From the NCBI GenBank assembly GCA_051006215.1, contig JBPCIO010000364.1, positions 1 through 51,043 of the forward strand: a stretch of 51,043 nt of DNA. The letters run 5' to 3'. The notes beneath the pieces were generated by a model. It was not told the origin of the DNA. It did no database searches and saw only the letters and a program-made list of their open reading frames with translations. The stretch comes from Chloroflexota bacterium. Lineage in GTDB: Bacteria > Chloroflexota > UBA6077 > CF-72. A program made the translations under genes and the position numbers. Each line of letters starts with the position of its first letter. Position 1 is the stretch's first letter. Of this stretch, positions 26,524-37,457 are shown piece by piece.

Positions 26524-26541
26524 GCGGAACCTACCTAACGT

Positions 26542-26636
26542 GAACGCTGGGGGTGCCTTCGGGCTGAGAACGAGGCGGACTGAGTCCTCGTACCCCAGGA
26601 ACCTGATCTGGGTCATACCAGCGGAGGGAAGCGTTC
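26542..26636 (+). ncRNA. TPP riboswitch (THI box)
   Basis: GGGGTGC...GCTGAGA...ACCC..GAACCTGATCTGGGTCATACCAGCGGAGGGAA. P1 pairs GAACGCT with AGCGTTC. It precedes thi genes. Confidence 0.96.
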
Positions 26637-26637
26637 T

Positions 26638-27339
26638 TTGCCATCGTCCAGGTTTCAACTTCATCTCGTCACGGAGCCCCGTCGCAGCCCCGGCGAGCTG
26701 CTCCATGCGGTAGCCCTGGCGCTTGACGGCGGGGCCGACTGGGTCCAGTTGCGCGACAAATCCGCTTCGGCCGCGTCTCTATACGACCAGGCAACTGGGT
26801 TATTGCGCGTAGCCCAGCAGCACGCCGCGCGGCTCGCGGTCAACGACCGTCTGGACGTCGCGCTTGCGATCGGCGCTGACGGCGTGCACCTGGCCGGGCA
26901 GAGTTTGCCAGTCGCGGAAGCCGTCCACCTCGGCGGCGGGCAGATCCTGGTGGGCCGATCAGTACACGGGCTGGCCGAAGCTCGCGAAGCGGCGGCGGCT
27001 GGCGTCGACTATCTCACGTTCGGGCACGTGTTTCCGACTACGTCGCACCCTGGCCTGCCACCGCATGGCCTGGCGCAACTAGCCGCCATCGTCAAAGCAG
27101 TCGAGGCGCCCGTACTGGCGATAGGCGGGATCACGGTTGCCAACGTAGACGACGTCTTGCGAACCGGCTGCGCGGGCATCGCCGTGATATCGGCGATTCT
27201 TTCAGACCCGGACCCTGGCCGAGCCGCTGGACGATTGCGTTTGGCGCTCGACGCGTCGAATCATCACCCCCGCTACCCCTTTCCAATCCTCGAACGGAAG
27301 GAAGCGCATGCAGCTAATCGTCAACCAACAGTCGTGTGA
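26638..27339 (+). CDS. thiE: Thiamine-phosphate synthase
   Basis: VQLRDK, VNDRLD, DGVHL, GRSVH and AIGGI motifs. Confidence 0.9.
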   Translation: MPSSRFQLHLVTEPRRSPGELLHAVALALDGGADWVQLRDKSASAASLYDQATGLLRVAQQHAARLAVNDRLDVALAIGADGVHLAGQSLPVAEAVHLGGGQILVGRSVHGLAEAREAAAAGVDYLTFGHVFPTTSHPGLPPHGLAQLAAIVKAVEAPVLAIGGITVANVDDVLRTGCAGIAVISAILSDPDPGRAAGRLRLALDASNHHPRYPFPILERKEAHAANRQPTVV

Positions 27340-28309
27340 GTTTGCCACCGAAGGCATGGATGTACCGGCTCTGCTGGCGAGCAAAGGCGTGGGGGAGGAC
27401 GCCGTGGCTGTCGCGGTCAACGGCGAGGTCGTGCCACGGCGTCGCTGGCCATCACTGACACTGGCGGATGGAGATCGCGTGGACTTGGTCAAAGTTGTAG
27501 CTGGCGGGGCCTGGCATGACGACGATGCTCTCGTCATCGCTGGAACGTCGTTCACTTCGCGGTTGCTGATGGGCACGGGTCGGTTCGTCTCACCTAGCGT
27601 GCTGAAAGCAGCGCTCGAAGCTTCGCAGACCGAACTCGTGACCGTGGCGATTCGGATGACGGGCGTCGACGGCAGCGGGCCTGACGCGGGCATTCTGTCG
27701 GCGCTGGATCGCCAGCGGTATCACCTGTTGCCGAATACCGCTGGCGCCACCAATGTGCGGCAAGCCGTGTTCATGGCCGAGCTAGCCCGCGAAGCGCTTG
27801 GCACCAGCTGGGTCAAGCTCGAGGTGATTGGCGACGAGCGCACGCTGTGGCCGGACGTGGCCGGGACCGTCGAAGCTACGCGCATCCTCGTGCGGGAGGG
27901 CTTCGTCGTCCTGCCATACACCACCACCGACCTGGTTGCCGCGCTGCGCCTGGAAGATGCCGGCGCCGCAACGGTGATGCCGCTGGGGTCGATGATCGGC
28001 TCCGGCCAGGGCGTCCAGGACTGGGAGGGCGTCCGGCGGATCGTCGAACGCGTCGACGTCCCGGTCGTGGTCGACGCCGGGATCGGCGCGCCCTCGGACG
28101 CCGTTCGCGCCATGGAGGCAGGCGCGGCGGCGTGTCTGATCAACACGGCCGTGTCGCGTTCCGACGACCCGCCGCTGATGGCGGCCGCTATGCGGCAGGC
28201 GGTCATTGCTGGGCGGCTTGGGTACCGTGCCGGGCGCATGCCGCGCATCGACCACGCGGTCCCGTCCAGCCCGACCACGGGACTCGTGGGCGCCGGCCTG
28301 TCCGCATGA
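27308..28309 (+). CDS. thiG: ThiS-ThiG fusion (sulfur carrier plus thiazole synthase)
   Basis: The N-terminal ThiS (AVAVNGEVVPR...VKVVAGG) is in frame with ThiG (SRLLMGTG, LPNTAG, WVKLEVI, DAGIG). Confidence 0.93.
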   Translation: MQLIVNQQSCEFATEGMDVPALLASKGVGEDAVAVAVNGEVVPRRRWPSLTLADGDRVDLVKVVAGGAWHDDDALVIAGTSFTSRLLMGTGRFVSPSVLKAALEASQTELVTVAIRMTGVDGSGPDAGILSALDRQRYHLLPNTAGATNVRQAVFMAELAREALGTSWVKLEVIGDERTLWPDVAGTVEATRILVREGFVVLPYTTTDLVAALRLEDAGAATVMPLGSMIGSGQGVQDWEGVRRIVERVDVPVVVDAGIGAPSDAVRAMEAGAAACLINTAVSRSDDPPLMAAAMRQAVIAGRLGYRAGRMPRIDHAVPSSPTTGLVGAGLSA

Positions 28310-28398
28310 GTCCTCGCGTGGTCGGCTGGGGTGACGCGATGCCCATGCGCTGGTGCCCGGTGGTGAAGGTGGTCGGTCCCGGCGCCGGGGGCGCGTGA
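28306..28398 (+). CDS. Putative 30-aa bridging mini-ORF between thiG and thiO
   Basis: ATGA overlap with the thiG stop and GTGA overlap with the thiO start. Confidence 0.45.
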   Translation: MSPRVVGWGDAMPMRWCPVVKVVGPGAGGA

Positions 28399-29543
28399 TC
28401 GGCAGCTCCGACAGCTCTGACGTTGTCATCGTCGGCGGTGGGGTGATCGGTTGCTCGATTGCCTACTTCCTGGCGCGAGCCGGCGTGCGGGTGACGCTGC
28501 TGGAGCGGAGCCACCTCGCCGCGGGAGCCTCGGGTGTCGCGGCGGGCATGCTGGCGCCGCAGGTCGAAGCTCCGTTCGCGGACCCGTTCTTCGAACTCGC
28601 ACTCCACGGCCGCGCCGAGCACGCTGGATTGGCGGAGCGCCTGCTCGACGAGGTTGGCCTGGACGTCGAGTACCGAGCCACGGGCATCCTGCGTGTGGCC
28701 CGCACGGAGGCCGAGCGAACCGATCTGCAACGTCAGCAGCGGTGGCAGTCGGCGCGAGGGCTGGCTGCCGAGTGGGTCGAGTCTGACGACCTGGGTCGGC
28801 GAGAGCCATTGCTCGGCGGGGTTGCGGGTCGCCTGCTGGCCGGCGGGCTGTGGTTGCCCGACGAAGCGCAGGTGCGCAGCCCGCGCCTGGTCCAGGCGCT
28901 CGCCACGGCGGCCGCTGGCCACGGCGCGCGACTTCTCGAAGGGACCTGGGCGATAGGACTGGAGGCGGTTGGCCAGCGTGTGACTGGAGTTGCAACGCCG
29001 ACAGGTGTTTTAGCCGCGGAGACGGTTGTTCTGGCGGCCGGCGTCTGGAGTCCGGAGCTGGCAGGTAGGGCCGGGCTCGACGTGCCGGTCACTCCCGTGA
29101 AAGGGCAAGTGCTGAGCCTGCGGGCGCTCGGCAAGAGCCCGCGGCGGGTAATCTGGTCAGGCGAGTGCTATTTGGTGCCGCGCCCGGATGGAGAGATCCT
29201 CCTGGGTGCGACCGAGGAGGAGGGCAACTATGACGCCCGGCCCACGCTGGCCGGGCTGAATCGGCTTACCGAGGCAGCGCTGGAGGTCGTGCCAGCCGCG
29301 GGTGGCTTCGTGGTCGAGGGCGCGTGGGCAGGCTTGCGGCCCGCGGCGCCTGACCGCCACCCGATCGTTGGCTGGGCGCCGGGCATGGACGGCTTGATGG
29401 TGGCCACCGCCCACTACCGGAACGGGGTCCTGCTGGGTCCCCTGACGGGACGGCTGGTGGCGGACCAGATTGTCTCAGGCACCCCCGCCGCCGAGTTTGC
29501 AGCGTTCGGGCCCGAGCGCTTCCTTACCCCCAACCCCACGTAG
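28395..29543 (+). CDS. thiO: Glycine oxidase
   Basis: GGGVIG FAD motif, ASGVAAGML, PVKGQ, WAGLRP and HYRNG. GTG 28395 is the likely start. Confidence 0.92.
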   Translation: MIGSSDSSDVVIVGGGVIGCSIAYFLARAGVRVTLLERSHLAAGASGVAAGMLAPQVEAPFADPFFELALHGRAEHAGLAERLLDEVGLDVEYRATGILRVARTEAERTDLQRQQRWQSARGLAAEWVESDDLGRREPLLGGVAGRLLAGGLWLPDEAQVRSPRLVQALATAAAGHGARLLEGTWAIGLEAVGQRVTGVATPTGVLAAETVVLAAGVWSPELAGRAGLDVPVTPVKGQVLSLRALGKSPRRVIWSGECYLVPRPDGEILLGATEEEGNYDARPTLAGLNRLTEAALEVVPAAGGFVVEGAWAGLRPAAPDRHPIVGWAPGMDGLMVATAHYRNGVLLGPLTGRLVADQIVSGTPAAEFAAFGPERFLTPNPT

Positions 29544-29956: not shown

Positions 29957-31102
29957 TCAGGGAGAAGGAGGTGGTCGCGGGTGGTCGGCGAGGAGTGAGG
30001 CGACGATGCGCTCGGCTGCGTGGCCGTCGCCGAATGGGTTCTCGGCGTTGGCCATGCGCTCGTACTCGGCCGAGTTGTCGAGCAGGCGGCTGGCCTCCGA
30101 AACAATGCGGTCGCGGGCGGTGCCGACGAGTCTCAGGGCCCCAGTCGCAACTCCTTCGGGTCGCTCGGTGACCTCTCGCAACACGAGCGCCGGGACGCCC
30201 AGACCAGGCGCCTCCTCCTGAATACCTCCTGAATCGGTGATCACCAGGTACGCGCGCTTCATCAACTGCAAGTTGGGAAGATAGTCAAGCGGGGGGCGCA
30301 GGGTGATGTTCGGAATATCCGCCAGCAGCTCGTGCACTGGACCCCACACGTTCGGGTTGCGGTGCACGGGATAGATGATGCGGATAGCGTTCCCGTAGCG
30401 CTCAGCCAGGTCCCGCAGCGCTAAGCAGATATTGCGCATAGGCTCGCCGAAGTTTTCGCGCCGATGAGCCGTTACGAGAACGACGCGGGACGCGCCTGAG
30501 CCGCCGAGCAGTTCGAGGACTTCAACGCCTTCCGGCTGAGCAGTAATCCAGCGCAATGCGTCGATGCCAGTGTTCCCGGTGACGAGGACAGCCCCGGCTG
30601 GGACATCCGCCCGAAGGAGGTTGTCGCGTGAGCGCGCGGTGGGCGCGAAGTGGCGATCCGCAATGACCGCCGCCACGCGGCGGTTGATCTCTTCGGGAAA
30701 GGGCTGCCAGCGGTCACGCGTGCGCAGGCCGGCCTCGACGTGACCGACTCTGCAGCGTGCATAGAATGCCGCCAGAGCAGCGGCGGCCACGGTCGTGGTA
30801 TCGCCCTGGACCAGCACCCAATCCGGCTGCTCGTCCAGCAGGATCGGCTCGAGTCGAGACAGCACCGCCGCCGCGACCCGGGTCGGAGTCTGATCAGCCT
30901 GCATCACGTTCAGGTCATAGTCGGGCTGGATCCCAAAGATGTGCAGCACCTGGTCCAGCATGTCGCGGTGCTGGGCGCTCACGCACACCCGACTGAGGAT
31001 GCGATCCGGATATCGGCCAAGCTCGCGAATAACGGGTCCGAGCTTGACGGCTTCGGGGCGTGTGCCGAAAACGGTCAGCACCTTCAGCAGCGGAGACGGC
31101 AC
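29957..31102 (-). CDS. wecB: UDP-N-acetylglucosamine 2-epimerase (non-hydrolysing)
   Basis: GTRPE, QGDT, HVEAGLR, HRREN, DSGGIQEE and NPFGDG motifs. Confidence 0.95.
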   Translation of the reverse strand: MPSPLLKVLTVFGTRPEAVKLGPVIRELGRYPDRILSRVCVSAQHRDMLDQVLHIFGIQPDYDLNVMQADQTPTRVAAAVLSRLEPILLDEQPDWVLVQGDTTTVAAAALAAFYARCRVGHVEAGLRTRDRWQPFPEEINRRVAAVIADRHFAPTARSRDNLLRADVPAGAVLVTGNTGIDALRWITAQPEGVEVLELLGGSGASRVVLVTAHRRENFGEPMRNICLALRDLAERYGNAIRIIYPVHRNPNVWGPVHELLADIPNITLRPPLDYLPNLQLMKRAYLVITDSGGIQEEAPGLGVPALVLREVTERPEGVATGALRLVGTARDRIVSEASRLLDNSAEYERMANAENPFGDGHAAERIVASLLADHPRPPPSP

Positions 31103-31109
31103 GCCAGGC

Positions 31110-31115
31110 AGTGTA
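31110..31115 (-). promoter_or_regulatory. -10 element TACACT, 7 nt before the wecB GTG (leaderless)
   Basis: TANNNT hexamer, 7-nt spacer and no SD. Confidence 0.55.
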
Positions 31116-31129
31116 GGTTTCCGCGTCGT

Positions 31130-31160
31130 TTGACAGGCGTCGATTTGCGTAGCGTATACT
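31130..31160 (+). promoter_or_regulatory. Sigma70-type promoter TTGACA-N19-TATACT of the aro operon
   Basis: Consensus -35 at 31130-31135 and -10 at 31155-31160. The spacer is slightly long. Confidence 0.7.
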
Positions 31161-31167
31161 CGCCGCG

Positions 31168-31233
31168 ATGAGGCAGCAGGCCTACTCGTATCTGTTTACG
31201 TCCGGCATGACGGGGTCGCTGCGGAAACGCTGA
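31168..31233 (+). CDS. Leader peptide MRQQAYSYLFTSGMTGSLRKR (Tyr/Phe attenuator)
   Basis: ATG is 7 nt after the -10. Y6, Y8 and F10 codons are followed by alternative stems and a terminator. Confidence 0.8.
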   Translation: MRQQAYSYLFTSGMTGSLRKR

Positions 31234-31258
31234 GTAGCCACGCGATTCTGTCATGTCG

Positions 31259-31293
31259 AAAGAGCGGTCCCCACCAGGGCCGCTCTTTTGTTT
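31259..31293 (+). terminator. Intrinsic terminator (attenuator)
   Basis: AAAGAGCGGTCC-CCACCA-GGGCCGCTCTTT followed by TGTTT, located before aroF. Confidence 0.88.
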
Positions 31294-31330
31294 ATCCCCT
31301 TCGTCCAGTGAGGAGGCTCAAGGAACGTCG

Positions 31331-32383
31331 ATGATCGCAGTCATGCAACCAACTGCCACGGCCGAGGACATAGAACACGTCGTCGAAGTGCTGCGGCTCC
31401 ACAACCTCAAGGCGCAGGTATCCCACGGGGAGCAACGCACGGTAATCGGTGTCATCGGGACGGGCTTTCCAGAAGACCTCTTAGAAACACTCGAAGTCCT
31501 GCCAGGTGTCGACCGTGTGACACGGATTACGCGGCCCTACAAACTGGCCAGCCGCGACTTCAAGCCGGGCGACACCATCGTCGAAGCCGGGTGGGGGCAG
31601 CCCATCGGCGGTCGCGAGTTCGTGGTCATGGCGGGCCCGTGCTCAGTCGAAAGTCGCGAGCAGCTGCTGCGCACCGCGGTCAGTGTCGCCGCGTCGGGCG
31701 CAACCCTGTTGCGAGGCGGAGCCTTCAAGCCGCGGACTTCGCCATACGCGTTCCAGGGCATGGGTGTCGATGGCCTCGAGCTGCTGGAGGAAGCCAGCCG
31801 ACGCAGCGGCTTGCCAATCATCACCGAGGTGATGGACCCCGGCCAGGTTGGCCGAGTCGCGGAAACGGCCGATGTCCTGCAGATCGGCGCCCGCAACATG
31901 CAGAACTTTCCCCTGCTCAAGGAGATTGGGCGCACCGGCAAGGCCACGATGTTGAAGCGCGGTCTGTCAGCCACGATTGAGGAATGGTTGATGGCCGCCG
32001 AATACATCATGCACGCTGGCAACCCGAATGTGATCCTGTGTGAACGCGGCATACGAACATTCGAAACGGCGACGCGCAACACGCTCGATCTGAGCGCGAT
32101 CCCCCTCATCAAGCGCCTGAGTCACCTGCCGATCATCGCCGACCCGAGCCACGGGACCGGACATCGCTACCTTGTCAAACCGATGGCCCTGGCGGCCGCG
32201 GCGGCAGGCGCTGACGGCCTCATCATCGAGGTTCACCCCGAGCCGGATACGGCCATGTCGGACGGCCCGCAGTCGCTGACCCTCGAAGGTTTCGAGGACT
32301 TGATGCACACGCTCGAGCAAGTGCTGCTAGCGGTGGGTCGCCCGCTGGCACGCCCACGCACACTGCTTCAGGCCACTGCGTGA
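31331..32383 (+). CDS. aroF: DAHP synthase type I-beta with N-terminal ACT/ferredoxin-like domain
   Basis: [27 protein letters not shown] and DPSHG motifs. True start is ATG 31331, since ATG 31253 lies within the attenuator. Confidence 0.94.
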
Positions 32384-33723
32384 GTGTTGCGGGGCCGGCG
32401 CAGGGTTCGACGGGGCGGCAAGCGAGCGCCGGACGGGCGGCGGTCAAACAGGTGGCCCCGGCGCGAGCCATTCGGGGCAGCCTGAGGGTGCCGGGCGACA
32501 AGTCCATTTCCCATCGCGCCGCCCTTTTCAACGCGCTCGGCGAGGGCGAAGCCAGCATCACCAACTTCTCGCCCGGCGGCGACTGCGCCTCGACGCTCAG
32601 CTGCCTTGAGAGTCTCGGGGTCGAGATCGAACGCGACGACGATCGCGTGCACGTCAAAGGCATCGGTCTGGGCGGGCTGCGCGAGCCAGCCGACGTGCTG
32701 GATTGCGGCAACTCGGGCACGAGCATGCGTCTGCTCAGCGGCATGCTGGCCGGCTCAGGCATCTTCGCCGTGCTCAGCGGCGACGGCTCGCTGCGTCGGC
32801 GGCCGATGGCGCGCATCGTCGAACCGCTACGCCGAGCTGGAGCGGCGATCGACGGACGCGATGGGGGCCGCCTGGCGCCGCTGGCAATCTCGCCGGTGTC
32901 GAGCCTGCGGGGCGTCGAGCATCGGCTGAGCATCGCCAGCGCGCAGGTCAAGTCAGCGCTGCTGCTGGCCGGATTGTTCGCCCGCGGCGAGACCAGTGTT
33001 GTGGAGCCAGCGCCGACTCGCGACCACACCGAGCGCCTGCTGAAGGCGATGGGCGCCGACGTGCGACAGACTGGGCACGTCGTCAGCCTGACACCTGGCC
33101 GTGCATTGCGCTGCGTCGACGTGCAAGTGCCCGGTGATTTTTCTTCCGCCGCGTTCTGGCTCGTGCTTGGCGTCCTGCACCCCTCGGCAGAAATTCGTGT
33201 GCGCGACGTCGGCCTCAATCCAAGTCGAACTGGGTTGTTGACGATTCTCGAACGCATGGGTGCCGACGTCGAGCTCGAAAACGCCCGAGATGCCGCGGGC
33301 GAGCCCGTGGCCGACGTGCTGGTGCGATCCAGCCAGCTGCACGGCGTTCACGTGGGCGGTGAGCTGGTGTCGCTGGCGATCGACGAGATTCCACTGGTCG
33401 CCCTGCTCGGGTTGTTCGCCGACGGCGAGACAGTGGTGGGCGAAGCAGGCGAGCTCCGAGCCAAGGAGTCGGACCGCTTAGCAGTTGTGGCGGACGGGCT
33501 CTCAAAGCTCGGCGCTGACATCGAAAGCACTGTTGACGGTTGGCGCATCCGACGCTCACGTCTGGAGATGGGTCGCGCAGATAGCCACGGCGACCACCGC
33601 ATGGCGATGCTGTTTGCGCTGGCTGGCGCGCTCGGCGATGGCGCCCAGATTGACGGCGCGGATAGCGTGTCCATTTCGTACCCCAGCTTCTGGGCCGATC
33701 TTCTGGCCCTGAGCTGCGGGTGA
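32380..33723 (+). CDS. aroA: EPSP synthase (class II)
   Basis: [30 protein letters not shown] and DHR motifs. Confidence 0.95.
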
Positions 33724-34559
33724 GTCACCGATGGGCGTGTTTGCTCGGCCAGCCGGTGGCGCACTCCCTGTCGCCGGCGCTCCACAACGCGGCCTTCCGC
33801 AGCTTGGGTATCGACGCCAAGTACGAGGCGTGGGAGGTTGCTCCGCACGCACTGGCCGAAGCGGTCGCGCGACTCCGCAGCCCAGACTGTATTGGCGCCA
33901 ATGTCACGGCGCCGCATAAGCAGACCGTGGTGGCGTACATGGATGAGGTCTCAGACGAGGTCCTGGCGCTCGGCGTCCTGAACACCATCGCCAATCGGGC
34001 GGGACGGCTGGTTGGAGGCAACACGGACGCACGCGGCCTGGCGCGCTGGATGCGGCAGGTTTCGATCGACCCGGCCGAGCGAGCGGCACTCGTGCTCGGG
34101 GCGGGTGGCGCCGGCCGAGCCGCGGTCTGGGCGCTAGCCGATCTCCAGGCGAGCTCAGTGCGAGTGTTGAATCGAACCGTCGAACGGGCGCAGGATGTCG
34201 TGTCGAGCCTCCAGGCGCATGTGCCGGGCGTGGAGCTGGGCTGGGGCGCCCTGGACGAAGTGGGCAAGCCCGCAACGACTGCCTGGAAGGTGGTCGTCAA
34301 CGCCACATCTCTGGGCCACCACGGAGCTGCGCCGAGTTTGCACCCCAGCTGCTACAGTCGTGACAGCGTGGCCATCGAGCTGGCCTACAACCCCCCGGAA
34401 TCGGCGTTCATGGTCGCTGCGCGCCAGGCCGGAGCGCGAGCCGAGAATGGATTGGGCATGCTGCTGCATCAGGCCGCGCTGGCATTCGAGCTATGGACGG
34501 GACAGCCGGCACCCATGGCCGCGTACGAGGCAGCCATTCCGTGGGCGTTCAGGCCGTGA
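33720..34559 (+). CDS. aroE: Shikimate dehydrogenase
   Basis: HSLSP, NVTAPHK, NTD, GAGGA and GLGMLLHQA motifs. Confidence 0.93.
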   Translation: MSHRWACLLGQPVAHSLSPALHNAAFRSLGIDAKYEAWEVAPHALAEAVARLRSPDCIGANVTAPHKQTVVAYMDEVSDEVLALGVLNTIANRAGRLVGGNTDARGLARWMRQVSIDPAERAALVLGAGGAGRAAVWALADLQASSVRVLNRTVERAQDVVSSLQAHVPGVELGWGALDEVGKPATTAWKVVVNATSLGHHGAAPSLHPSCYSRDSVAIELAYNPPESAFMVAARQAGARAENGLGMLLHQAALAFELWTGQPAPMAAYEAAIPWAFRP

Positions 34560-35752
34560 GCCTGGGCTACTTGCGCGTGGTTACGGCCGGGGAATCGCAC
34601 GGGCCGCAGCTCACGATCTTCGTCGAGAATCTGCCGGCCGGCATGCCGGTCCTGGCCGAGGACATCGACGTCGACCTGGCGCGGCGTCAGAAGGGCTACG
34701 GGCGCGGCGGGCGACAACAGATCGAGCATGACCGGGTGGAGATCGTGGCCGGCGTGCGGCATGGCCTGAGCATGGGCGGCCCAATAGCTATGGTGGTTAA
34801 AAATCGAGACTGGGCCAACTGGCAGGGGAAAATGGATATCGAACCCGTGCCAGAACCGCCGCCACCGGTGACGCGGCTACGGCCCGGGCACGCGGATCTG
34901 GCGGGAGTGGTCAAGTATGGTCTCGGGGACGTTCGGAACGTGCTCGAACGTGCCAGCGCCCGAGAAACGGCATCGCGTGTCGCCGCTGGCGCGTTGGCCA
35001 AGACCTTCTTGCGCCACTTTGGCGTTGAGGTTCGCAGTCACGTGCGGAGTGTTGGCTCGACCCGAGCCAATGTGCCTGACGACCTCACGCTGAAGCCCGA
35101 GGCGGCAACACATGCGTGGTGGTCGAACGTAGAAAATTCGCAGCTGCGGACGGGCGATCAGGTGTTCGAAGCGCAGGCCATCGAGCTCATCAAGACGGCC
35201 CGCGCTGGTGGCGACACGCTCGGAGGCGTCTTCGAGGTGATTGGCTACGGGCTGCCGATCGGCTTGGGCACGTATGGCCAGTGGGACGAGCGGCTGGATG
35301 GTCGTTTGGCCGCGGCGGTCATGAGCATTCAGTCGGTCAAGGGGGTCGAGCTCGGCGACGCCTTCGACAATGCCTCGCGGCCGGGCTCAGAGGCCCATGA
35401 CATCATCGACTTCGATCCTCAGCGCGGCTGGCTGCGACCCACAAACAGGGCTGGCGGACTCGAGGGCGGCGTGACCAACGGTGCCCCAGTCGTCGTGCGC
35501 GGGGCAGCCAAACCGATCTCCACACTCATCCATCCGCTCCCCTCGATCGACTACGCCACCCGCGAGCGAAGCCTGGCCCACGTGGAGCGCAGCGACGTGT
35601 GCGTGGTGCCCGCCGCCGGTGTCGTCGGCGAAGCGATGGTGGCTCTGGTGCTGGCCGACGCGATGCGCTTCAAGTTCGCAGGTGACAGCCTGGACGAGGC
35701 GCTAGCCAATTTTCGGGGTTACACCAAACGTGGAACGCGACGCGGTGACTGA
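34556..35752 (+). CDS. aroC: Chorismate synthase
   Basis: TAGESHG, RPGHAD, ASARET and ERSD motifs. GTGA overlap with aroE. Confidence 0.95.
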   Translation: MSLGYLRVVTAGESHGPQLTIFVENLPAGMPVLAEDIDVDLARRQKGYGRGGRQQIEHDRVEIVAGVRHGLSMGGPIAMVVKNRDWANWQGKMDIEPVPEPPPPVTRLRPGHADLAGVVKYGLGDVRNVLERASARETASRVAAGALAKTFLRHFGVEVRSHVRSVGSTRANVPDDLTLKPEAATHAWWSNVENSQLRTGDQVFEAQAIELIKTARAGGDTLGGVFEVIGYGLPIGLGTYGQWDERLDGRLAAAVMSIQSVKGVELGDAFDNASRPGSEAHDIIDFDPQRGWLRPTNRAGGLEGGVTNGAPVVVRGAAKPISTLIHPLPSIDYATRERSLAHVERSDVCVVPAAGVVGEAMVALVLADAMRFKFAGDSLDEALANFRGYTKRGTRRGD

Positions 35753-35755
35753 CGG

Positions 35756-36313
35756 ATGGACAACCTGATCCTGGTCGGGTTCAGCTGCAGTGGCAAGACC
35801 ACGCTCGGGCGCAACGTCGCCAGACGCTTGGGCCTGGCATTCGTCGACAGCGACCGGTGTATCGAAGAGATGACCGGCCGAAGCATCCCCGAAATTTTTC
35901 GAGACGACGGTGAAGTGGGCTTCCGCGCGATAGAGCGGGAAGTGATCAGCCGCATCCTGGCCGCACGCAACCAGGTGGTCAGCACTGGTGGCGGCGCCTT
36001 CGTCGATCCCGAAAATCGCGAGAAGCTTCGGAGCGGCAATCTGGTCATCCACCTGCAGGTCAGACCCGACACGGTGGTCGACCGTCTGCGGAACAGCAAG
36101 TCGGGCCGGCCGCGGCCGCTCCTGGAGAGCCCTGACCCGCTGGCTCGCGTCGTTCACTTGATGGCGGAGCGCAAGGAAGCGTACGCGGCAGCGCACGTCA
36201 CGATTGGCGTTGACGACCGGTCGCGGTATGAGCTGGTGGGTGAGCTCCGCCGCCGCTGGTTGGCGTGGCAGCGCGCTCATCGCGCAACTGCTGCCGCACC
36301 TGCCGAGCGATGA
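35756..36313 (+). CDS. aroK: Shikimate kinase
   Basis: GFSCSGKT P-loop, FR..E, STGGG and RPLL motifs. Confidence 0.93.
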   Translation: MDNLILVGFSCSGKTTLGRNVARRLGLAFVDSDRCIEEMTGRSIPEIFRDDGEVGFRAIEREVISRILAARNQVVSTGGGAFVDPENREKLRSGNLVIHLQVRPDTVVDRLRNSKSGRPRPLLESPDPLARVVHLMAERKEAYAAAHVTIGVDDRSRYELVGELRRRWLAWQRAHRATAAAPAER

Positions 36314-36357
36314 GCTCGGTCGTGAGTCCGGACACGCGTCGGGCGGGGCGGATGTGA
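36310..36357 (+). CDS. Putative 15-aa bridging mini-ORF MSSVVSPDTRRAGRM between aroK and aroB
   Basis: ATGA overlap with the aroK stop and GTGA overlap with the aroB start. Confidence 0.4.
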   Translation: MSSVVSPDTRRAGRM

Positions 36358-37457
36358 GCGACCCCTACACACGACCCGGCGGGCCAATCGCGGTGCGGGT
36401 GTTGCGCGCAGGTGGGCGCGATGTGCCGCTCCTGGCTGGACCAGGCGCGATGGAGCACCTGCCGCAAGCGCTTGCCGAAGCGGGGTTTACAGGCCGGCTG
36501 TTTGTCGTGGCCGACGAGTTCGCCCTCTCGCTGCACGGCGGCGTACTTCACGGGGTGCTGCCGGATGCGCCGGTGCTGCGTATGTCAGGACGGGAGTCCG
36601 ACAAGACCCTGGACAACGTGGCGCGCGTCTGGGACTGGCTTGTAGAACTCGGCGCGCAGCGGCGGGACGCACTGGTCGCCTTTGGCGGCGGTGTGGTGTG
36701 TGATCTGACTGGCTTCGCCGCGGCGTGTTATCTGCGCGGGATCGGCCTGGTGAATGCACCGACGACGTTGCTTGCCCAGGTGGATGCGGCTGTAGGTGGC
36801 AAAACCGGCGTCAATCACGCGCGCGGCAAGAACTTGATCGGGGCCTTTTTCCAGCCAGTGTGCGTGGTGGCCGATACCCGCCTGCTGGCGACTCTGGCGC
36901 CGCGAGCGTTCGCCGCCGGCATGGCCGAAGTAGCCAAGATGGCGATGATCCTGGATGCCGAGCTGTTCGCCAGGCTCGAGCAGGTCGCTGCGCAGCTCAC
37001 ACCTCACGCTGGCGACATTCTGGCCCCATTCGTGGCGCGTTCGATCGAGTTGAAGGCGCAGATTGTCGAACGCGACGAGCGCGAATCCGGCGACCGCATG
37101 CTTTTGAACTACGGCCACACGGTTGGACACGCGCTCGAGGCTGGTGCCGGGTACGGCGCGCTGCTCCATGGAGAGGCCGTCGCGGTGGGCATGCAGGCAG
37201 CGGCTCACCTTGCGCAATGGCTCGACATGCTGGCGCTCGACGACGCCCGCCGGCAGACTGAGCTGCTGCGGGCCCTCCAGCTACCGCTGTGCTGGCCGTG
37301 TCGCGTTGAAGAGGTGGTGAGCCGCCTGGCGCTCGACAAGAAGCGCTCCGGCAGCCGCCAGCGTTGGGTGCTGGCTGAACGCGTTGGCGCTGCCCGCGTT
37401 CGGGACGACGTGCCGGCCGAACTCGCCCGCAAAGCCGTGCAGGCGATCTGCGCGTGA
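36354..37457 (+). CDS. aroB: 3-dehydroquinate synthase
   Basis: GGGVVCD, PTTLLAQVDA, GGKTG, NYGHT and HGEAV motifs. Likely start GTG 36354. Confidence 0.93.
   Translation: MSDPYTRPGGPIAVRVLRAGGRDVPLLAGPGAMEHLPQALAEAGFTGRLFVVADEFALSLHGGVLHGVLPDAPVLRMSGRESDKTLDNVARVWDWLVELGAQRRDALVAFGGGVVCDLTGFAAACYLRGIGLVNAPTTLLAQVDAAVGGKTGVNHARGKNLIGAFFQPVCVVADTRLLATLAPRAFAAGMAEVAKMAMILDAELFARLEQVAAQLTPHAGDILAPFVARSIELKAQIVERDERESGDRMLLNYGHTVGHALEAGAGYGALLHGEAVAVGMQAAAHLAQWLDMLALDDARRQTELLRALQLPLCWPCRVEEVVSRLALDKKRSGSRQRWVLAERVGAARVRDDVPAELARKAVQAICA

Follow-up and report, generated by a model that had tools for sequence, protein, structure and literature searches.

Regulation at the entry to aromatic amino acid biosynthesis by a translated leader has a close precedent in Corynebacterium glutamicum, the aroR-aroF attenuator of which is said to have been described by Neshat et al. 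in 2014. According to the accessible parts of two reports, aroR specifies a Phe-Tyr-Phe leader peptide before aroF, and ribosome stalling under phenylalanine limitation raises read-through (PMC11802643, PMC4046766). The element considered here, an RNA leader with a 21-codon reading frame, lies upstream of another aroF in a 51,043-nucleotide stretch of bacterial DNA (contig JBPCIO010000364.1, forward strand), called the window below. On the evidence of sequence comparison, it is very probably a strongly conserved, ribosome-read transcription attenuator of the aroF-aroA-aroE-aroC-aroK-aroB operon. Transcription would start at or just ahead of the ATG at 31168 and a ribosome would translate the leader; by default, RNA polymerase would terminate at 31259-31293, and when charged tRNA-Tyr or tRNA-Phe is scarce, the ribosome would wait at 31183-31197 and the polymerase would continue into aroF. 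We infer both the direction of this regulation and the route by which stalling would block the terminator.

Two further groups of leaderless leaders have been described. In Streptomyces lividans, the accessible part of one report lists leaderless leader peptides before biosynthetic genes and the tRNA-synthetase genes leuS, trpS, thrS, and alaS (PMC8079986); like the leaders of the window's family, which are predicted to begin at the transcript 5' end as well, they stand before aminoacyl-tRNA synthetase genes (here pheST), but none of the eight leaders listed there is aromatic-pathway-wide, unlike that of the window. The leaderless poly-Cys sensory short open reading frames (ORFs) of mycobacteria, as presented in the accessible part of the preprint (bioRxiv 10.1101/834739), expose a ribosome-binding site and so work through translation, whereas the window leader faces a terminator.

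Leader peptide, hairpin and terminator ahead of aroF

The promoter, the 21-residue ORF with its Tyr and Phe codons, the three stems, and the U tract that the original prediction had described were all recovered by sequence reading and a pairing check, as follows.

31130-31135 and 31155-31160, plus strand: promoter-like hexamers TTGACA and TATACT (predicted by sequence reading)
31168-31233, plus strand: leader ORF of 21 codons, MRQQAYSYLFTSGMTGSLRKR then stop; ATG 31168-31170, TGA 31231-31233
31183-31197, plus strand: sensor codons TAC-TCG-TAT-CTG-TTT (Tyr, Ser, Tyr, Leu, Phe), with TAC at 31183, TAT at 31189, and TTT at 31195
31203-31258, plus strand: long hairpin P1 (the "protector" of the original prediction), with a lower stem of 17 bp and an apical part holding the leader stop codon
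31212-31220, plus strand: candidate antiterminator 5' arm GGGGTCGCT, pairing with 31263-31271
31259-31293, plus strand: predicted intrinsic terminator, a 12-bp GC-rich stem (31259-31270 with 31277-31288) with a 6-nt loop, then TTTTGTTT (31286-31293)
31263-31271, plus strand: candidate antiterminator 3' arm AGCGGTCCC, overlapping the terminator 5' arm

P1 and the terminator directly adjoin in the window, the spacer between them being zero. The P1 lower stem (31203-31219 with 31242-31258) consists of standard pairs throughout (17/17, four of them G-U; -27.3 kcal/mol as a duplex), and at minimum energy 31168-31300 folds into P1 and the terminator and nothing else, at -61.4 kcal/mol (z = -4.59), a value that none of 200 shuffles equalled. 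The basal A-U pairs of the terminator include the first U residues of the tract. The promoter-like hexamers are separated by 19 nt in the window (31136-31154) and by 17 nt in the genus relatives L002-L005 and L007, and both are kept in all nine family aro leaders, in one case as CATACT. A consensus promoter and terminator scan with a permitted spacer of 16-18 nt listed neither the window promoter nor its terminator, the promoter being missed because its 19-nt spacer exceeds 18 nt.

The leader ATG at 31168 stands 7 nt past the TATACT hexamer. Sequence reading places the start codon 7-10 nt after a TATACT-like hexamer in 9/9 family aro leaders and 9-11 nt after one in 10/10 leaders of the pheST type described below, leaving no space for a Shine-Dalgarno site. 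The mRNA of the window would thus probably be leaderless or nearly so, as claimed earlier, with an ATG 7-11 nt past the -10 hexamer in all 19 family leaders. In other families a longer stretch parts the start from this hexamer (about 30 nt in L013, which has a Shine-Dalgarno-like GAGG), so the leaderless form would be a trait of the window's family and not of the RNA class.

An AroF search matched 58 of 61 related genomes (G048, flagged unpublished, among the 58), and 30 aroF loci were compared, one of which (L027) ends at a contig edge, leaving 29 usable upstream regions. A leader ORF was defined as a small ORF with at least three aromatic residues in six that ends 60-200 nt ahead of aroF. 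Such an ORF, with its end 80-190 nt upstream of the DAHP synthase start, was present in 28/29 of these order-level relatives as opposed to 2/29 in the reverse-strand control, which bears out the conservation of Tyr and Phe codons upstream of aroF orthologues that had been foreseen. The sensor clusters in relatives read YSYWF, WYYYF, YAYYF, FYF, and similar, with Trp in many; the window leader has Leu (CTG) at a position occupied by Trp (TGG) in six of eight genus and family relatives. A common layout was found in all 28 leaders, namely the aromatic cluster, a gap mostly of 3-7 nt, the hairpin, a spacer of 0-5 nt, and the terminator with its U tract. P1 measures 49-64 nt in these 28, with conserved arms GGCAUGACGGGG and CCCCGUCAUGCC, and holds the leader stop codon in every case, at the apex or in the 5' arm.

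Consensus folding recovered nine P1 and ten terminator pairs, of which 15/19 carry compensatory changes. In an alignment of 47 rows, which was fitted to the model and is hence somewhat favourable to it, 96.9% of the P1 and terminator cells are paired vs 77.7% after shuffling, the covariation score was reached by none of 500 shuffles, and sliding the partners by 1-3 columns lowers pairing to 32-55%. Taken separately, the P1 lower stem has compensatory changes in 7/9 pairs and 96.0% of its cells paired, and the terminator in 8/10 pairs with 97.6% paired. Once relatives are compared, the predicted leader ORF, P1, and the terminator are therefore far beyond chance.

In 45/45 leaders, 9-11 nt lie between the last aromatic codon and the conserved core of P1. 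The conserved P1 arm is translated in three frames (18, 14, and 13 of the 45 leaders), and leaders of the pheST type, like some aro leaders, take their stop codon from its ACAUGA. As the arm is read in three frames at a fixed distance, its conservation would lie at the RNA level, and the distance is itself a kept feature. The last sensor codon is UUU in 39/45 leaders (31195-31197 in the window; alignment columns 16-18); in the six aro genes of the window, where G+C is 64.6%, the 46 Phe codons comprise 11 TTT vs 35 TTC. The UUU preference may reflect selection for a wobble-read codon. As a further observation, each genome has a single copy of the terminator stem GCAGAGG...CCTCTGCTT, in this leader only, and the stem keeps its sequence across families and classes; copies were located as follows.

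G166:C1:4722759-4722783: terminator-stem copy
G190:C1:1591736-1591760: terminator-stem copy
G170:C1:2263354-2263375: terminator-stem copy
G024:C40:371006-371029: terminator-stem copy

Codon content, second copy and spread of the RNA family

A covariance model of the leader RNA, R1, was used to search genomes and detects two copies, no more, in the genome of the window. The second is the following.

G000:C360:911-1021 (L112:911-1021), plus strand: second copy before pheS-pheT, with leader MSCLVSFTFGTST then stop; R1, 44.3 bits

This copy is a predicted Phe-sensing paralogue of the window leader. Two R1 copies were found in every window-family genome having a match, and the nine other second copies that were fetched all stand ahead of a pheS-like ORF (with NCBIfam confirmation for one), their leaders containing two or three Phe codons each, no Trp, and Tyr in two. 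This leader RNA also stands before a type I-alpha 3-deoxy-D-arabino-heptulosonate 7-phosphate (DAHP) synthase of the aroFGH family in three genomes of another family, at L136, L137, and L151 (G019:C141, G027:C3, and G014:C268); these enzymes match TIGR00034 with 513-524 bits, and the leader clusters read FYYF, FSYYYF, and YYF. In one of the three genomes, G027, a leader stands before the type I-alpha gene and none before the type I-beta aroF (L024).

The putative sensor codons thus track the downstream gene, with Tyr, Trp, and Phe before DAHP synthase and Phe before pheST; the scaffold appears to follow function (pathway entry or Phe charging) and the codons to follow the gene. This match between codons and downstream gene is the strongest argument that the ribosome reads the signal, and it sustains the original prediction of a ribosome-read Tyr/Phe leader peptide before a terminator and the aro operon. 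One scaffold fitted with different sensor codons according to gene amounts to a natural experiment, in which codon choice would set the signal. In the window genome, pheS itself contains an in-frame TAA (L112:1605-1607) within the conserved ...RTHTTA*QARVM, splitting the ORF into 1050-1607 and 1617-2114, which may reflect faulty assembly or a disrupted gene.

Within the class of the window, R1 matched 35 of 66 genomes, every match being in the window's order: 34/38 genomes besides the window's own carry it, and none of the 27 genomes in other orders of the class does (G048, flagged unpublished, among the 27). In an even sample of the phylum covering other classes, 26/135 genomes matched, three of them single-contig (G100, flagged unpublished, among the 26). 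Fifteen of these out-of-class leaders were read; most repeat the common layout, their gaps measuring 3-5 nt and their spacers 0-2 nt, and the downstream ORFs checked were DAHP synthases in 5/5 cases. The complete genomes G166, G190, and G170 carry the motif, and bench tests may be possible if they come from cultured strains. Named records matched by R1 include a Candidatus Limnocylindrales metagenome-assembled genome (42 bits) and a Chloroflexota one (38 bits), and in a quick single-gene IQ-TREE tree of AroF the window's order clusters with the Chloroflexota rows (Shimodaira-Hasegawa-like approximate likelihood ratio support of 95). From this one gene tree and the two named matches, the phylum carrying the RNA family is probably Chloroflexota.

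Rfam at gathering score over the whole window returned nothing in the leader region, and a search up to E = 10 on 30950-31450 gave just a chance microRNA match at E = 8.7. The T-box riboswitch (RF00230) was accordingly rejected for the aro leader, having no match up to E = 10 in that interval, as were the Rfam leader families (Phe_leader, Trp_leader, and others), no model of which matched in the region. A literature search on leader peptides and attenuation in Chloroflexi or Chloroflexota found no paper, subscription journals lying largely outside full-text search, and a search on leaders of aroF, aroR, or DAHP synthase found work on Corynebacterium and E. coli alone. The leaders would thus form an undescribed, widespread cis-regulatory RNA family without an Rfam model, one that governs entry into the aromatic pathway and has a paralogue governing the Phe-tRNA synthetase.

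Possible routes from a stalled ribosome to the terminator

In the route supplied by the original prediction, stalling would put the 5' half of P1 under the ribosome and thereby free GGGGTCGCT (31212-31220) for pairing with AGCGGTCCC (31263-31271), whereas a ribosome at the stop codon would cover 31212-31220. The pairing itself is sound, comprising 9/9 standard pairs with two G-U at -11.6 kcal/mol, but a 9-bp complement of the terminator 5' arm within 31198-31258 was reached in 70 of 2000 mononucleotide shuffles and the helix is by itself just mildly unusual. Runs of at least 7 nt in the same alignment columns occur in 13/45 leaders, which belong to two families with differing terminators (GGGGCUGC with GCGGUCCC, and GCUCCUU with AAGGAGC), a suggestive finding. 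As a conserved helix over the 47 rows, however, 57.9% of the antiterminator cells are paired vs 56.1% when shuffled and 34-48% when slid; just 4/45 leaders do better than shuffles at p<=0.05, and families f3, f4, f5, f6, and f7 lack the pairing with all other features retained. Of the stem covariation that had been anticipated, the part concerning P1 and the terminator was therefore found and the part concerning the antiterminator was not.

Folding under ribosome masking gave a similar outcome. With a footprint masked on full leaders, the minimum-energy fold retains the terminator in 28/28 under three footprints, and in RNAs cut ahead of the terminator 3' arm, stalling gives no consistent increase in 5'-arm pairing. 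The window leader so cut and masked does show the 9-bp antiterminator in its minimum-energy fold, and sequestering of the 5' arm in cut RNAs becomes favourable once the mask extends 13-16 nt past the last aromatic codon; the window shows its largest gain, -7.3 kcal/mol, with a 13-nt mask, as opposed to roughly 0 with 0-7 nt and -0.3 with 22 nt. The gain was also computed at a 10-nt mask, and the apparently stall-specific part was equalled by shuffled terminator arms (mean -4.88 vs -4.89 kcal/mol), with 4/45 leaders in the best tenth and the window at 0.13.

Pairing with the cognate terminator arm was likewise close to that with foreign arms for the P1 5' part (-8.11 vs -7.72 kcal/mol), the P1 3' part (-7.06 vs -7.72), and the sensor-codon region (-5.0 vs -5.25), and an all-against-all column covariation scan recovered P1 and the terminator alone. 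In a family-by-family matrix, 107 of 5000 permutations equal the diagonal, and this is not counted as support because two paralogous sets of f1 drive it. Pairing of the sensor-codon run with the terminator 5' arm, seen in ribosome-free folds, was rejected as an antiterminator, being weak, not cognate-specific, and blocked by a stalled ribosome. No selected antiterminator is demonstrable. As a working helix, the 9-bp pairing of the original prediction is present in the window but not conserved as a helix, and the reach assumed in its masking step is not supported: a ribosome on the last aromatic codon would cover only some 5 nt of the 17-nt arm, and P1 could then fold ahead of the terminator arm and leave no free toehold. 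The scheme is consequently regarded as possible but doubtful.

Geometry offers another route. A ribosome with a hungry codon in its A site protects about 9-10 nt beyond it, so a stalled ribosome would cover at most about 5 nt of P1. From this footprint and the distance from codon to P1, it follows that a stalled ribosome would abut a folded P1 and a non-stalled one must unwind it, as a three-segment attenuator would have it. In the leading reading, which is favoured tentatively, P1 remains unmelted and its adjacency to the terminator is the mechanism: the stalled ribosome would sit at the base of folded P1, the other strand of which lies 0-5 nt from the terminator, and the ribosome or the bulk of P1 would hinder completion of the terminator hairpin at the polymerase exit channel, into which the upstream strand must fold back, whereas a non-stalled ribosome would unwind P1 and leave the terminator free. 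The 9-11 nt distance, the reading of the arm in three frames, the 0-5 nt spacer, the stop codon inside P1, and the 15 out-of-class leaders are all consistent with it. In a stronger and rather unlikely version, P1 would act as a bridge, with its 5' base at the mRNA entrance of the stalled ribosome and its 3' base 0-5 nt from the terminator, that brings the ribosome, some 55 nt away along the RNA, next to the polymerase and so prevents terminator closure. The block would then be exerted by the ribosome, or by the folded helix either sterically or through the polymerase, in the manner of the phage HK022 put RNA, which acts on polymerase. If the bridge version were true, this would be attenuation without antiterminator pairing, conserved across a phylum. 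The remaining probability for the mechanism falls to some alternative pairing unrecognised in this analysis.

Several points weigh against ribosome-read attenuation as a whole. The usual RNA logic of attenuators is not demonstrated here, because the terminator persists in the masked folds and there is no stall-specific sequestering beyond that of shuffled arms. RNA-only logic would in fact predict the opposite sign, with an unwound P1 freeing a competitor of the terminator; we know of no precedent for the steric or bridging route; and the 19-nt promoter spacer of the window exceeds that of several genus relatives, with 17 nt.

A rival reading has sensing inverted or absent, with termination either constitutive or relieved when efficient leader translation unwinds P1 and lets it compete with the terminator. 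By pairing alone, the P1 3' arm is the sole competitor for the terminator arm and is free only without stalling; that pairing is weak, however, the cognate arm doing no better than foreign ones, and a biosynthetic operon together with pheST would go off during starvation, contrary, to our knowledge, to all cases studied so far (attenuators of trp, phe, and pheST). It is thus considered highly improbable. A protein- or ligand-controlled attenuator or riboswitch, formed by the hairpin and terminator with the small ORF incidental, would explain why the P1 arms keep their sequence beyond pairing while being read in three frames and why the terminator stem sequence is retained across families. It would leave unaccounted for the aromatic codons of 28/29 relatives, with their 2/29 counterpart on the reverse strand, the Phe-only switch before pheST, and the codon distance to P1 fixed at 9-11 nt; P1, moreover, is one long, plain helix whose apex varies, devoid of a conserved loop or bulge and of any Rfam match. 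This explanation, too, is given very little credence.

The operon, its surroundings and known attenuators

Downstream of the leader, the following genes were annotated.

31331-32383, plus strand: aroF, type I-beta DAHP synthase with an N-terminal ferredoxin-like regulatory domain (Pfam, NCBIfam)
32380-33723, plus strand: aroA (Pfam EPSP_synthase)
33720-34559, plus strand: aroE (Pfam Shikimate_dh_N)
34493-35752, plus strand: aroC ORF, start uncertain (Pfam Chorismate_synt)
35756-36313, plus strand: aroK (Pfam SKI)
36204-37457, plus strand: aroB ORF, start uncertain (Pfam DHQ_synthase)

The aroF ATG at 31331 sits about 40 nt past the terminator, and its product matches Pfam DAHP_synth_1 (4.6e-78) and DAHP_snth_FXD (1e-17) and NCBIfam NF006421 (480.8 bits). 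From aroF to aroB, neighbouring genes overlap or almost touch, and a LytR-family gene is next downstream. The operon covers six of the seven shikimate steps, so the claim that the leader controls the whole shikimate operon would hold for these six and not for the type II dehydroquinase gene, which lies on a different contig. Upstream of the leader, a UDP-N-acetylglucosamine 2-epimerase gene is on the opposite strand, and therefore the terminator cannot serve an upstream gene.

Elsewhere in the same genome, a full-length T-box match lies upstream of trpS-trpE (L155:1176-1446, minus strand, in G000:C363), with 78.1 bits and E = 2.1e-17, a score below the Rfam gathering score of 93; the trpS-like gene behind it continues directly into trpE. 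The Trp branch thus seems to be tRNA-sensed and the common aromatic pathway ribosome-sensed. Within the window, a thiamine pyrophosphate riboswitch was found above gathering score at 26539-26646 (plus strand, 71 bits), followed downstream by a ThiS-ThiG fusion ORF (27308-28309) and an ORF for a glycine-oxidase-like flavin adenine dinucleotide enzyme (28353-29543).

Aromatic leader ORFs on other RNA scaffolds were also observed before type I-beta aroF, at L065, L069, L039, L100, L078, L102, L077, L097, and L082, in metagenome-assembled genomes of Geobacteraceae, Syntrophaceae, Acidobacteriota, Clostridia, and Anaerolineae. Counted crudely over named genomes from many phyla, aromatic small ORFs preceded aroF in 20/79 on the forward vs 13/79 on the reverse strand, which is unconvincing as a tally, and single loci alone were drawn upon. 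The Geobacteraceae leader (FSFYFWFGFYF..., in L065 and L069) resembles that of the window in preceding the same enzyme class, in having a hairpin right after the sensor codons, and in the stop codon within it. It differs in that, by sequence reading of L069, the hairpin 3' arm CCGGGGCAGAC doubles as the terminator 5' arm; hairpin and terminator are there mutually exclusive because they share nucleotides, whereas the window family has no such overlap. The Geobacteraceae leader would accordingly be a three-segment attenuator of the plain overlapping hairpin-terminator kind.

Classical four-segment attenuators place their sensor codons within segment 1, and segment 3 is the pairing partner of segment 2. 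The window leader has in common with the E. coli trp, pheA, pheST, and his attenuators a leader ORF containing end-product codons, a hairpin, and a U-tract terminator, together with a Phe-codon version before pheST. The family is unlike them in that a gap of 3-7 nt separates the codons from the hairpin, the hairpin has no nucleotide in common with the terminator (the spacer being 0-5 nt), and neither a conserved 2:3 nor a conserved 1:3 pairing was found by the cognate-arm, covariation, and shuffle tests. This layout, with codons just ahead of a stable hairpin that adjoins and does not overlap the terminator, misfits the textbook logic of alternative hairpins, and the family could reveal a second route of communication from ribosome to RNA polymerase.

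As far as the accessible parts of the C. glutamicum reports go, aroR-aroF and the window share a short aromatic leader upstream of a DAHP synthase gene. C. glutamicum belongs to another phylum and has another DAHP synthase, where the window has the type I-beta enzyme with its ferredoxin-like domain followed by five more shikimate genes, and the window's relatives add Trp codons to a signal that is Phe-Tyr-Phe in aroR. With aroR-aroF and the leaderless leader peptides of Streptomyces already described, the novelty of the concept had been overstated: a leader of this kind is already known, and what is new is the family, its spread in the phylum, the pheST paralogue, and the non-overlapping layout of hairpin and terminator.

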